A stretch of 32,133 nt of DNA from a virus (IMGVR_UViG_3300005805_009082:1-32133); one strand, 5' to 3'; positions 22,095-24,968 are shown, counted from the first letter of the stretch. Notes: a model not told the origin generated them from the sequence alone. Translations and numbers: made by a program.

Positions 22095-22125
22095 ATCCTA
22101 ACACCTTACGGTAGTAACTTTACAC
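22095..22125 (-). promoter_or_regulatory. GTGTAAA-type promoter of uvsE
   Basis: TGTAAA-N18-TAGGAT, then 6 nt to the ATG. The -35 element overlaps the upstream GTG TAA stop. Confidence 0.55.
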
Positions 22126-22941
22126 TTGACACGTTTCACACCACCAAGATGTGCGACCATCTAACGTGTCTTCGCGTTTCACCGGATGACCTTCCGGACA
22201 CTGTTTCATGTTATAGACGCGGAAGTAGAACTGAGCATTACCCTTGTCTCCATCCACCGTGCGATATGTTCGAATTGAGGCACCGTGGTCGACGTAGGAT
22301 TCCCACGCGGCAGATAACAATTCGTACTGGAGTTTCAAGATGTTCTCCGACGATAAATCCGTCACAATCCGATGTGGGGATATTCCTGACCGGAACAACG
22401 CCTCGGCCTTGAGATAGTTACCACATCCAGAGATGCAAGATTGGTCCATAAGGGCCTCACATATTGTCCGGGTTGGTTTTAATAGGATTCTTTCCGCGAA
22501 TATTCCAGGGTCAACCGGAGGTTCATCGAGGATGTCCGGACCGAGGGATGCAAGTTTCTTGGCATGGGTCTTTGGGTCGGAGACGAACTTGACCGTCCCG
22601 AACCTCCGTGTATCGTTGAAGAAGAGTTCCCCGCCCTCTTCAAATTCGACGATGAAACCTGCATGTTTGCCTCGGGTGCGAGACCACTGTCCTGACATTC
22701 CGTAGGTGGACCACATGTACCAGGTTACGTCTCCCCCGGTGAGGGTCCACCACATGAACTTCCCCTTGACATCGACCGACTCGACTCTCAGGGGTAAATC
22801 AGCGATTATCTTCTCGAGACCGTCGGGGACCTTCGTCGCATACCTCCCGTCCTGGGTGGGAGACAACCGGACGATTGATTTACCGACGATGATGTTTCGT
22901 AGGACGTCACGAGAATGACGAAGTTCTGGACCTTCTGGCAC
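22120..22941 (-). CDS. Fpg/Nei family DNA glycosylase/AP lyase
   Basis: N-terminal PEGPE, KGKFMW, YGMSG, FNDTRRFG, the H2TH motif LMDQSCISGCGNYLKAEALF and a C-terminal CPEGH...CETC finger. Confidence 0.95.
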   Translation of the reverse strand: MPEGPELRHSRDVLRNIIVGKSIVRLSPTQDGRYATKVPDGLEKIIADLPLRVESVDVKGKFMWWTLTGGDVTWYMWSTYGMSGQWSRTRGKHAGFIVEFEEGGELFFNDTRRFGTVKFVSDPKTHAKKLASLGPDILDEPPVDPGIFAERILLKPTRTICEALMDQSCISGCGNYLKAEALFRSGISPHRIVTDLSSENILKLQYELLSAAWESYVDHGASIRTYRTVDGDKGNAQFYFRVYNMKQCPEGHPVKREDTLDGRTSWWCETCQV

Positions 22942-23121: not shown

Positions 23122-23343
23122 TTAATTAGCGGTTCGCAAATAATCAACAGCGATTTTTTTCATTGTTCCGTCTTCGACGAGGACGGTGACCCAGTGGACG
23201 ACACTTCCCTCCACGTCGGTGTACTGGTTCAATCCTGAGACGACGACAGCGAGACCCTCTGCGCCTGGGTCGCTGAACGGAAAAGACATCTGGAAAATCC
23301 CACCACACTTGTCGTAGTAAACTAGGTCGCCCTGAGAAATCAT
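23122..23343 (-). CDS. Small SH3/KOW-like 'GDLV' family protein
   Basis: MISQGDLVYY...GLAVVVS...VTVLVEDG; ATGA overlap with the tilS stop. Confidence 0.65.
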   Translation of the reverse strand: MISQGDLVYYDKCGGIFQMSFPFSDPGAEGLAVVVSGLNQYTDVEGSVVHWVTVLVEDGTMKKIAVDYLRTAN

Positions 23344-23942
23344 CTGATACCTAATGCAAGGTACTTCTTCTTGATGACTTTGTGCAACCCAGGATTTACC
23401 ATCATCGCTTCTGGGACGATGTTGTGTCGAATACGGTTCCTCATGAAACGAGTGTCGTAGTTCGTCTGGTCATCCACCCACGGTAGGTCCTTCCGTTCGC
23501 ACCACGAAACAAACTCGGACTTCGGCGTGATGAGAAACGGATGGAGTACGTTGCCGGTCTTGTACGGCATCAATCGTGGTTCACCGTGAAGTGAGTTGAA
23601 AATCCACGTTTCAATCGCGTCGTCGAGGTGATGCGCGGTGACGACAGAGAGTTTGAAAGACGCGAAGAACCTTTGACGTTCGTTACGCCAGTATTCCTCC
23701 CAGGATTCATCGGGGGATTTCTCTCGTTCGAGTTTTCCGATGTGGAGTTTGAGTCGACGTTGTTTCGCGAACTCCTTCGCAAATCCTAAAGCGATTTCTG
23801 AAGTAATCGTCCCATGGTCGAAGAATGCGAGTTCTACGTGTTTTCTTCCCCGGATGAGGAAGTCGGCGACGGCAACAGAATCGACTCCCCCCGAAAAAGC
23901 GACGACTACCTTGTTCGGAATCTTACCGAGAATTCGAATCAT
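23340..23942 (-). CDS. tilS: tRNA(Ile)-lysidine synthetase, minimal form (catalytic domain only, 200 aa)
   Basis: PP-loop AFSGGVDS, FDHG, EEYWRNER, TAHHLDDAIET, HPFL and DDQTNYDTRFMRNRIRH. Confidence 0.9.
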   Translation of the reverse strand: MIRILGKIPNKVVVAFSGGVDSVAVADFLIRGRKHVELAFFDHGTITSEIALGFAKEFAKQRRLKLHIGKLEREKSPDESWEEYWRNERQRFFASFKLSVVTAHHLDDAIETWIFNSLHGEPRLMPYKTGNVLHPFLITPKSEFVSWCERKDLPWVDDQTNYDTRFMRNRIRHNIVPEAMMVNPGLHKVIKKKYLALGIR

Positions 23943-23949
23943 TGGATTT

Positions 23950-23979
23950 ATTGTATCTCAAGATTACTGAAGATTACAC
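23950..23979 (-). promoter_or_regulatory. GTGTAAT-type promoter of tilS
   Basis: TGTAAT-N17-TACAAT, then 7 nt to the ATG. Confidence 0.6.
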
Positions 23980-24031
23980 GAATAGCTCAATTAGTTCGAT
24001 ATGGCTGTCTCTGTGGAATATATTTATCACC

Positions 24032-24835
24032 ATGAAACAACAGGCTTACGTTTGTCAATACTGCGGAAAAGAAGCGAAAAAACGAAACCGAATGTCACTG
24101 AGTATTCATGAAATACGCTGTGATTTGAATTCAGAAAAAAACGCGAACATGAAAATTCCTTCAAGAAAAGGAAAATATAAAGGTGACAATCCTTCCGAGA
24201 TAACAGTGAAAAAGAGAATCAGCGCAGAAAGAAGAAATGAATGTTTGTCAACTCAAAAATTTGAGTGCGTTCATTGTAGAAAAGATTGTAAACGTGCGGA
24301 TTTTAGAAAATCATTTTCCAGTCTTACGATTCATGAATCACAGTGCAAATCAAATCCAAATGCAGTAAAAATTCAAAGAAAACCGCACACAGAAGAAACG
24401 AGAAAAAAAATAAGTGAGGCTGGAAAAAAAAGAAATTTGTCTTTTGAGCAAAGAAAGAAAATCAGCGAGTACATGAAAAAAGCCGTGGCGTGCCATCCTG
24501 AATCTTACACTAGCTCAAACCGCGGACGAGTTAAGCAAATAGAAATAGACGGTCTTAAGCTTCATGGCAGCTGGGAAGTTTTATTTTATACATGGGCAAA
24601 AAACACCGGACTAATGCCAGAAAAGTGCATGAAGAGTTTTTCATATGAGTGGAACGGAACTCGTTCTTATTACCCTGATTTCTACATTCCGTCATTGTCT
24701 CTTTATGTGGAGATAAAGGGATACGAAACAGAACAAGACAGAGCCAAATGGAATCATTTTCCTGAAAAGCTAATTGTTCTGAAGAAAAAAGAAATCGAGC
24801 AAATAAAAAAAGGAACCTTTAGAGGATTAATCTAA
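24032..24835 (+). CDS. Free-standing putative homing endonuclease (Zn-finger, NUMOD3 and PD-(D/E)XK domains)
   Basis: Two CxxC...IHE..C motifs, NUMOD3-like KPHTEETRKKISEA and YYPDFYIPSLSLYVEIKG. It is AT-rich and on the opposite strand to its neighbours. The likely start is the ATG at 24032, after TATTTA. Confidence 0.75.
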   Translation: MKQQAYVCQYCGKEAKKRNRMSLSIHEIRCDLNSEKNANMKIPSRKGKYKGDNPSEITVKKRISAERRNECLSTQKFECVHCRKDCKRADFRKSFSSLTIHESQCKSNPNAVKIQRKPHTEETRKKISEAGKKRNLSFEQRKKISEYMKKAVACHPESYTSSNRGRVKQIEIDGLKLHGSWEVLFYTWAKNTGLMPEKCMKSFSYEWNGTRSYYPDFYIPSLSLYVEIKGYETEQDRAKWNHFPEKLIVLKKKEIEQIKKGTFRGLI

Positions 24836-24846
24836 AGGTTCCTTTT
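24808..24846. terminator. Bidirectional hairpin terminator between the endonuclease and the tRNA
   Basis: AAAAGGAACCTTTAGA-ggattaa-TCTAAAGGTTCCTTTT, a perfect 16-bp inverted repeat abutting the tRNA CCA end. Confidence 0.8.
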
Positions 24847-24929
24847 GGTGGAACGGGTGGGACTTGAACCCACAAGCCGAAGCGCTCGTTTATGAGACGA
24901 GTGTGTATAACCGATTTCACCACCGTTCC
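24846..24929 (-). tRNA. tRNA with CAU anticodon and a class II (Leu-like) body, CCA encoded; probable Ile2-type TilS substrate
   Basis: GGAACGG-TG-GTG AAATCGGTTATA CAC-A-CTCGT CTCATAA ACGAG-CGCTTCGGCTT-GTGGG TTCAAGT CCCAC-CCGTTCC-A-CCA (84 nt). All stems pair; the anticodon is at 24892-24894. Confidence 0.95.
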
Positions 24930-24938
24930 ATAGTCTTT

Positions 24939-24968
24939 AATATACTTCATCCCACGTTGTTTTTACAC
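24939..24968 (-). promoter_or_regulatory. GTGTAAA-type promoter of the tRNA
   Basis: TGTAAA-N17-TATATT, 9 nt before tRNA G1. The -35 element overlaps the GTG TAA end of the upstream ORF. Confidence 0.6.

Follow-up and report, generated by a model that had tools for sequence, protein, structure and literature searches.

A phage tRNA(CAU) with tRNA-Ile2 and tRNA-Leu domains beside a short TilS gene and an endonuclease-like gene

The tRNA(CAU) gene and its domains

We analyzed a whole virus contig of 32,133 nt (IMGVR_UViG_3300005805_009082; the whole stretch is called the window below), which encodes GroEL, IF-1, UvdE, Fpg, an endolysin, and virion-like proteins and carries a single tRNA gene, with a CAU anticodon. 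About 0.9 kb away on the same strand lies a gene for a minimal TilS, and the gap between the two is filled by a plus-strand gene for an endonuclease-like protein (Table 1). The first-pass annotation had described an 84-nt class II tRNA(CAU) with a CUCAUAA loop, an 11-nt variable arm, and a list of pairs, next to a 200-aa TilS without C-terminal domains behind the same type of promoter; all of this was found as claimed, and the 267-aa endonuclease-like gene in the gap had been overlooked. The window sequence was found in lake-water assemblies, and contigs of its relatives reach 278 kb. Matches of IF-1 and TilS pointed to no coherent host phylum.

Table 1. Features of the tilS-tRNA(CAU) region, positions counted from the first nucleotide of the window
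Feature	Position	Strand	Description
Minimal TilS, 200 aa	23340..23942	-	Catalytic domain and start of linker; no C-terminal domains
Promoter-like GTGTAA-N18-TACAAT	23950..23979	-	Ends 8 nt upstream of the tilS start; message probably leaderless
Endonuclease-like protein, 267 aa	24032..24835	+	Cys/His repeats and C-terminal PD..EXK motif; candidate free-standing homing endonuclease
Terminator-like hairpin	24808..24846	-	3' of the tRNA; overlaps the last codons of the endonuclease gene
Mosaic tRNA(CAU)	24846..24929	-	84 nt, CCA encoded; Ile2-type acceptor and anticodon arm, Leu-type D and variable arms
Variable arm, 11 nt	24874..24884	-	2-bp stem, UUCG loop
Anticodon CAU in CUCAUAA loop	24892..24894	-	C34 is the predicted lysidine site
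Leu-type D arm	24903..24920	-	G12:C23, A13.A22, preceded by G9; 1 nt longer after G19 than in most tRNA-Leu
Promoter-like GTGTAA-N18-TATATT	24939..24968	-	Immediately upstream of the tRNA; putative

A long variable arm is taken as the hallmark of Leu, Ser, Tyr, and Sec tRNAs. The window tRNA has such an arm in place of the short loop of a class I body, together with the Ile2 features CAU, A37, A38, A73, and a paired 1:72. Its pairs are G10-C25, U11-A24, G12-C23, A13.A22, U8/A14, A15/U48, C5:G68, and C29:G41, and the branch pattern is 7/5; minimum-free-energy folding returned no cloverleaf (z -1.75). Each domain was compared by position weights with two sets of distinct sequences, 111 phage tRNA-Leu and 80 short CAU tRNAs adjoining tilS or the endonuclease gene, the latter (Ile2) set including alleles of this locus. 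The log2 Leu/Ile2 scores, positive values meaning Leu, are -11.4 for the acceptor, +34.2 for the D arm, -5.3 for the anticodon arm, and +3.8 for the T arm; when reference sequences were left out one at a time, D arms were fully separated and the other domains in 76-90% of cases. The acceptor and discriminator are identical at 15/15 positions to short CAU tRNAs of the same locus in relatives (L024, L030, L454; L numbers denote loci), the best tRNA-Leu reaching 10/15, and the T arm is identical to the same short tRNAs at 16/17. The D arm equals that of a phage tRNA-Leu(UAA) in L471 at 14/14 scored positions, and the variable arm that of a phage tRNA-Leu(UAA) in L180 at 10/11 nt. Judged from the sequence, the tRNA is an Ile2 gene with D and variable arms turned Leu-like rather than a complete Leu scaffold given an Ile anticodon. 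Of the earlier idea that tRNA-Ile2 was rebuilt on a Leu scaffold, the Leu-like arms therefore stand and the whole scaffold does not, the acceptor and anticodon arm being of Ile2 type.

Some of the listed marks are common to both classes: A15:U48 is also present in 53/80 and A73 in 80/80 of the short Ile2-type tRNAs. Truly Leu-like are G9, G12:C23, and purine13.A22; Leu-type core triplets are described in PMC12360207 (papers are cited here, by accession, for the available parts of their text). The D arm is Leu-like by its score, but the segment separating G19 from position 22 is 4 nt long, whereas it is 3 nt in 100/111 and 4 nt in 6/111 phage tRNA-Leu. The 4-nt segment recurs in L007, L037, and L272, all three reached through tilS. 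A search pattern for CAU tRNAs with this core (Leu-core tRNAs), which had the 4-nt segment built in so that its matches say nothing on the conservation of that feature, gave 13 matches in viral contigs, with a tRNA called in 8, and 5 matches with no tRNA in cellular genomes; the exact 5' pattern of the window tRNA had no match in viral contigs. C29:G41 and C5:G68 had been put forward as TilS determinants, an assignment that we do not retain, since in the text available C29:G41 is an isoleucyl-tRNA synthetase (IleRS) element and C5:G68 is read by a TilS domain that is absent here.

The anticodon shows no differing letter in the covering contigs of X1, X2, and X3, which are runs of one study, one of them perhaps the window's own source. 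Among relatives with the same body, none has CAA or UAA as its anticodon, and every tRNA with this acceptor stem that adjoins tilS or the endonuclease gene has CAU. A sequencing error or a fresh anticodon mutation, the doubts raised in the first-pass annotation, is therefore out.

A short TilS beside interchangeable tRNA alleles

The window TilS scores 106 bits against TIGR02432 (cut-off 93.6), and its alignment to the 317-aa Aquifex TilS is confined to residues 25-225. Its structural model (mean confidence, pLDDT, 95.6) has Aquifex TilS as best match, with E 7e-14 and a template-modeling (TM) score of 0.78-0.82. The PP-loop and H43, R89, H104, D108, E111, D158, N161, R168, N169, and R172 are invariant in 40/40 aligned TilS, and we take these ten residues to belong to the active site. 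The 120 homologues listed, out of 468, are all 181-230 aa in a search that spanned 110-350 aa, so short length is a family trait. TilS of type I has two C-terminal domains and that of type II one (PMC12514573); the distal domain, which reads C4:G69/C5:G68 (PMC12514573, PMC12069591), is absent from the window TilS. Twenty-eight phage records match the protein. Phage TilS has been published before, from Pseudomonas phages MIJ3 and PA5oct (PMC6892783), and the window TilS shares 39.7% identity, across 97% of its length, with the PA5oct-group protein.

The pairing of a class II CAU tRNA with a short tilS, which the first-pass annotation had proposed to look for, recurs in other phages. We examined 160 partly redundant tilS loci (the 80 best among 186 viral ones and the 80 best among at least 239 in metagenomes). 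A CAU tRNA within 1.3 kb of tilS is short in 42/160 and long-armed in 8/160, with 3 more at a greater distance. The forms found upstream of tilS are ordinary short, divergent short, long-arm with A8/U14 swapped, Leu-core, and split by a group I intron (L021, L031). Four loci carry four tRNA bodies, Leu-core in L007, another long-arm type in L009, and short in L012 and L256, next to TilS proteins that are 92-96% identical and form one clade in a quick tree (approximate likelihood-ratio support, SH-aLRT, 99). Near-identical TilS thus stand beside short, Leu-core, and other long-arm alleles, from which we conclude that the tRNA body is swapped and the CUCAUAA loop kept; co-evolution of the long arm with a special TilS is rejected on the same ground. 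Conversely, the window and L007 tRNAs differ in the D loop alone and their TilS are just 72% identical. The quick tree requires 3 changes for the Leu-core allele and 2 for the A8/U14 allele, and a contig of run X5 departs from the window at the border of the variable and T arms and continues as a short allele. Two complete genomes reached through their long-arm tRNA, G002 and G003, encode short TilS too (frames of 224 and 208 aa). With 4 CAU tRNAs in G002 and 3 in G003, identity by elimination fails in these genomes. No phage-encoded Ile, Leu, or Val synthetase was present in five records, two of them complete genomes.

Long-armed CAU tRNAs are rare in phages, and the Leu-core type is rarer still. 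A long-gap pattern gave 122 loci from an estimated 880 viral stretches, 90 of them with a long-arm CAU tRNA, and a short-gap control pattern gave 122 loci from about 28,000 stretches, 115 of them real, so that the long-arm share of phage CAU tRNAs is about 2-3%. Initiator-like sequences account for 58 of the 94 distinct long-arm CAU tRNAs (L128-L249); a long arm on a CAU tRNA therefore does not by itself mean Leu. At the same loci long arms are also present on 10/36 tRNA-Asn(GUU) calls. A broader cellular scan called a long-arm CAU tRNA in 41/121 loci, many of the A8/U14 type in Burkholderiaceae; this swapped family occurs in phages and is widespread in Paraburkholderia, Ralstonia, and Cupriavidus (L002, L009, L128, L178, L645, L679, and others). 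A mirror case is seen in large phages, with class I short-arm tRNAs bearing the Leu anticodons UAA, UAG, and CAA (L540, L553, L558, L523). In many Verrucomicrobia and Acidobacteria genomes (L642-L760) an initiator-like tRNA is present as a 3' fragment only; its 5' half is missing, and a GC-rich hairpin follows the anticodon. Such fragments may be what is left of integration sites. Low-threshold tRNA labels (e.g., L005, L098) are possibly false calls. Long-armed phage tRNA-Ile2 was found in no publication in a search mostly of papers outside subscription and without supplements, and the terms are absent from the available text of PMC8421152, PMC6409571, PMC5389517, and PMC7609411.

A GTGTAA-N17/18-TAnnnT motif lies upstream of both the tRNA and tilS and has 5 matches in the window against 0.49 expected, a count equaled in 0/100 shuffles. 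GTGTAA opens five consecutive minus-strand units (22125, 22977, 23979, 24968, and 25465). The start codons of Fpg, UvdE, and tilS are 36-37 nt downstream of the GTGTAA start, which implies leaderless messages. A conserved leader of about 40 nt upstream of the tRNA is seen in L001, L002, L007, L009, L251, L256, and L288; the window lacks it. The terminator-like hairpin of the tRNA is kept in L001, L002, and L251, which have no endonuclease gene. In the same region of the window, the Fpg-like protein (22120-22941) matches a group of four solved chains at E 2e-41 and MutM entries only at E 1e-27; in relatives a tmRNA gene lies a few kb from tilS (L016 13323-13699, L017 6973-7348).

Reading of AUA and charging of the tRNA

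ATA makes up 128/605 Ile codons in 31 open reading frames (ORFs) of the window, and the log likelihood (lnL) at its ATA columns is -109.5 for Ile versus -165.3 for Leu. In a matched test with ATA excluded from the homologue counts, the homologue majority was I 72, V 34, L 20, and M 12 at 165 ATA columns of 8 Leu-core loci and I 384, V 189, L 107, and M 22 at 829 ATA columns of 28 short-allele loci; L versus I+V does not differ between them (Fisher p=1.0). At Leu codons the homologues have L in 76-80%. For the window and L532, columns whose outside homologues have I, V, L, or M hold ATA 33, 20, 4, and 2 times, respectively. ATA is found at GroEL 310 and 362 (I in 4/4 solved homologues) and 509 (I 3, V 1), and at IF-1 65 (I 5/5) and 50 (I 4, V 1). 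ATG columns are Met in 251/464, in line with the controls (502/935). AUA thus aligns with Ile and Val as in carriers of ordinary alleles, and codon reassignment is therefore rejected; AUA appears to be read as Ile in the carrier genes, an indirect conclusion since a host tRNA could supply this reading. Of the first-pass suggestion that the tRNA inserts Leu at AUA or AUG, the change of code falls and a weaker, partial leucylation is left. An excess of Met at ATA in Leu-core loci (12/165 versus 22/829 columns) was traced largely to L272 and its single-homologue columns, 4 of them in one gene. In L272 a minus-strand ORF of 377 aa has four ATA codons opposite Met in the lone homologue, L538. The tilS gene itself has 0/14 Ile codons as ATA, and other minus-strand genes are ATA-poor too.

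The E. coli leucyl-tRNA synthetase (LeuRS) recognizes A73, A15:U48, G18G19, and A20a, and its IleRS the anticodon loop with L34, A73, C4:G69, U12:A23, and C29:G41 (PMC9976931); a Met/Ile switch is described in PMC4237120. Of the three IleRS stem pairs the window tRNA has C29:G41 only, and the short alleles too lack C4:G69 (A4:U69 in 24/80). Its extra D-loop nucleotide breaks the Leu-type spacing of 20a, a position at which changes, like those at 21, caused a loss of only 2.5-fold with Aquifex LeuRS (PMC2377443). Neither the tRNA nor its orthologues have a Leu anticodon. These elements make Ile charging most likely, with leucylation a live risk.

The tRNA shares CAU, the CUCAUAA loop, A73, and a TilS catalytic domain with the bacterial tRNA-Ile2/TilS system, and differs from it in the long variable arm, the Leu-type D arm, the lack of C4:G69/U12:A23, and a TilS with neither C-terminal domain. 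Bacterial and phage tRNA-Leu have in common with it G9, G12:C23, purine13.A22, U8:A14, A15:U48, A73, and the variable-arm geometry; unlike them it has CAU, an acceptor and anticodon arm of Ile2 type, the extra D-loop nucleotide, and an Ile2 locus by tilS. A parallel in decoding is with the nematode nev-tRNA-Ile(UAU) and -Gly(CCC), which also join a non-Leu anticodon, AUA-directed in the former, to the D and V arms of tRNA-Leu; they are leucylated in vitro (PMC3333845) and cause no detectable mistranslation in vivo (PMC4300185). The nev-tRNAs are eukaryotic, derive from whole tRNA-Leu, and have UAU, whereas the phage mosaic, seen here as genes, has Ile2 ends and would need lysidine. Allo-tRNAs likewise have a long arm and an unexpected anticodon, with AUA a frequent target; their branch is 8/4 or 9/3 and their identity Ser or Ala, unlike 7/5 and A73 here, and most allo-tRNA(UAU) tested were inactive in translation (PMC5389517).

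The endonuclease-like gene and the interpretation of the mosaic

The endonuclease-like protein matches phrog_15137 (E 2.7e-18) and resembles TnsA-like/NUMOD3 clusters. At the loci of its 80 best among 373 viral relatives, a called CAU tRNA lies within 150 nt of the gene in 69/80; the remaining 11 on inspection have a CAU tRNA too, intron-split in 8, long-armed in 2, and truncated at the contig end in 1. CAU makes up 87/440 tRNA calls at these 80 loci. Group I introns were called with Rfam in 5/6 intron-split tRNAs tested and sit at two anticodon-loop positions, after 33 and after 36. Intron-split phage tRNA(CAU), most of them misnamed by ARAGORN, are found in L453, L456, L459, L489, L511, L516-L518, L021, and L031. 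The family thus has a nuclease motif, a patchy presence at a fixed site by a conserved gene, and intron-interrupted target alleles, as homing endonucleases do. Because 80/80 best viral relatives abut a CAU tRNA, 8 of them intron-split, a homing endonuclease specific for tRNA-Ile2 genes is suggested, possibly a driver of allele turnover. T4 SegB is a similar stand-alone endonuclease gene adjoining tRNA genes and moves tRNA alleles among phages; it is of GIY-YIG type, recognizes the T arm, and cuts tRNA genes with no isotype preference (PMC2330249, PMC13096335), unlike the PD..EXK motif and CAU preference seen at the gene level here. We found no publication on this endonuclease family in a literature search of the same scope as for the long-armed tRNA-Ile2. 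In many of L452-L531 the endonuclease open frame extends into the first bases of the tRNA.

With moderate confidence we interpret the locus as a phage cassette of tRNA(CAU) and short TilS, in which the Ile2/Leu mosaic tRNA is likely lysidinylated by the phage TilS and likely charged mainly with Ile by the host, so that AUA would be read as Ile. A TilS without C-terminal domains would read little beyond the anticodon stem-loop; this would free the tRNA body to vary, and lysidine with the anticodon loop would pass the tRNA to IleRS. If this is right, the likeliest driver of body variation is the neighboring endonuclease, through cutting and gene conversion, which we rate at about an even chance. 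Escape from host tRNA-cutting defenses is less probable, though a serious candidate; escape from anticodon nucleases in particular, as first suggested, has no direct support because the loop is canonical. Neutral recombination with tRNA-Leu genes is doubtful. What speaks against a driving role of the endonuclease is that just 5 of the roughly 55 distinct and intact tRNAs next to it are long-armed (binomial p=0.012 versus a rough 2.5% background and 0.14 versus 5%, the lineages not being independent), that the same tRNA occurs in L251 without and in L256 with the gene, and that the family lies within 1 kb of 2/54 long-arm versus 0/71 short loci. Since most endonuclease-neighboring tRNAs are short, the long arm would be at most one among several escape forms; its role as a fixed immune allele is not supported.

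Several observations weigh against the Ile-charged cassette as a whole. The tRNA has most of the bacterial LeuRS elements named in PMC9976931 and PMC2377443 (A73, U8:A14, A15:U48, G18G19, and a Leu-like arm geometry), which makes partial leucylation conceivable, and of the E. coli IleRS elements C4:G69 and U12:A23 are missing. G12:C23 is present in 107/111 phage tRNA-Leu and 0/80 short Ile2 tRNAs, and the best BLAST matches in cultured phages are, where annotated, tRNA-Leu at 72-75%. TilS residue 134, opposite Aquifex Arg174, is His in 17/40 proteins, the window's included. There is no called CAU tRNA in the available DNA at 107/160 tilS loci, and G002 carries a Leu-core CAU tRNA alongside a clearly Ile2-like short one, so that the former need not be a working Ile2. 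Leu-core loci use AUA for a smaller share of their Ile codons than short-allele loci do (Mann-Whitney p=0.011, from about three lineages), and 6/20 ATA columns of L272 align to Met. The window lineage seems to have acquired the Leu-core allele by recent exchange; its effect may thus not yet have reached the proteome, where mischarging may also be hidden because Ile-to-Leu changes are mild.

These points feed the alternatives. A dual identity, in which the lysidinylated tRNA reads AUA but is also charged by host LeuRS, giving a tolerated Ile/Leu mixture as a bacterial counterpart of nev-tRNAs, is in our estimate unlikely. It is favored by the Leu-type core with G9, G12:C23, and A13.A22, by the occurrence of the same 4-nt D-loop segment in two genuine phage tRNA-Leu, by the nev-tRNAs, which have precisely the D and V arms in common with tRNA-Leu and are leucylated in vitro, and by the lower AUA share; a first mixture estimate that allowed 5-30% Leu-like ATA columns in the window also favored it, Leu being overstated there by uneven ATA masking. 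In the matched control, however, carriers of the short alleles show the same Leu share at ATA, and about three lineages account for the AUA depletion, the window at 0.23 falling inside the 0.10-0.35 of its short-allele sisters. A20a is shifted by one nucleotide, ATA mostly swaps with other Ile codons in the long-standing L037/L272/L538/L541 clade, and the nev-tRNAs themselves give no detectable mistranslation in vivo. Also unlikely, in about the same measure, is a two-identity tRNA served by a TilS without body-reading domains, for which Ile/Leu ambiguity would be the price of escaping a tRNA-Ile2 homing endonuclease or host nuclease. The loss of IleRS stem elements, the spare short tRNA in G002, the many tilS loci without a nearby CAU tRNA, and the inactivity of most tested allo-tRNA(UAU) would also suit a passenger or decoy allele, poorly modified or charged (or an unmodified Met-tRNA reading AUG harmlessly) and kept for its resistance to the endonuclease or as a sink for a host tRNA nuclease, with TilS serving host or other tRNAs. 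We regard this as rather improbable, as all stems pair, CCA is encoded, the gene has a putative promoter and terminator of its own, all alleles have the same anticodon loop, and Leu-core alleles last across a clade with TilS branch lengths of 0.19-0.25. Full sense-codon reassignment, with AUA (or AUG) read as Leu by the phage, draws on the Leu-type D and variable arms only and is highly improbable against the window lnL values, the ATA codons at conserved Ile of GroEL and IF-1, and the Met share at ATG.

On the preferred interpretation, a natural Ile2/Leu mosaic together with short and other long-arm alleles under near-identical TilS offers a ready series for the study of IleRS/LeuRS discrimination, in which the extra D-loop nucleotide can be examined as a possible block to LeuRS. 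At 200 aa, the TilS would be shorter than both types described so far, and any CAU stem-loop may serve as its substrate, a property useful to work on AUA reassignment. The isotype-tied endonuclease family, together with the group I introns that enter one anticodon loop at two positions, suggests that phage tRNA-Ile2 genes are the object of a genetic conflict not yet described.

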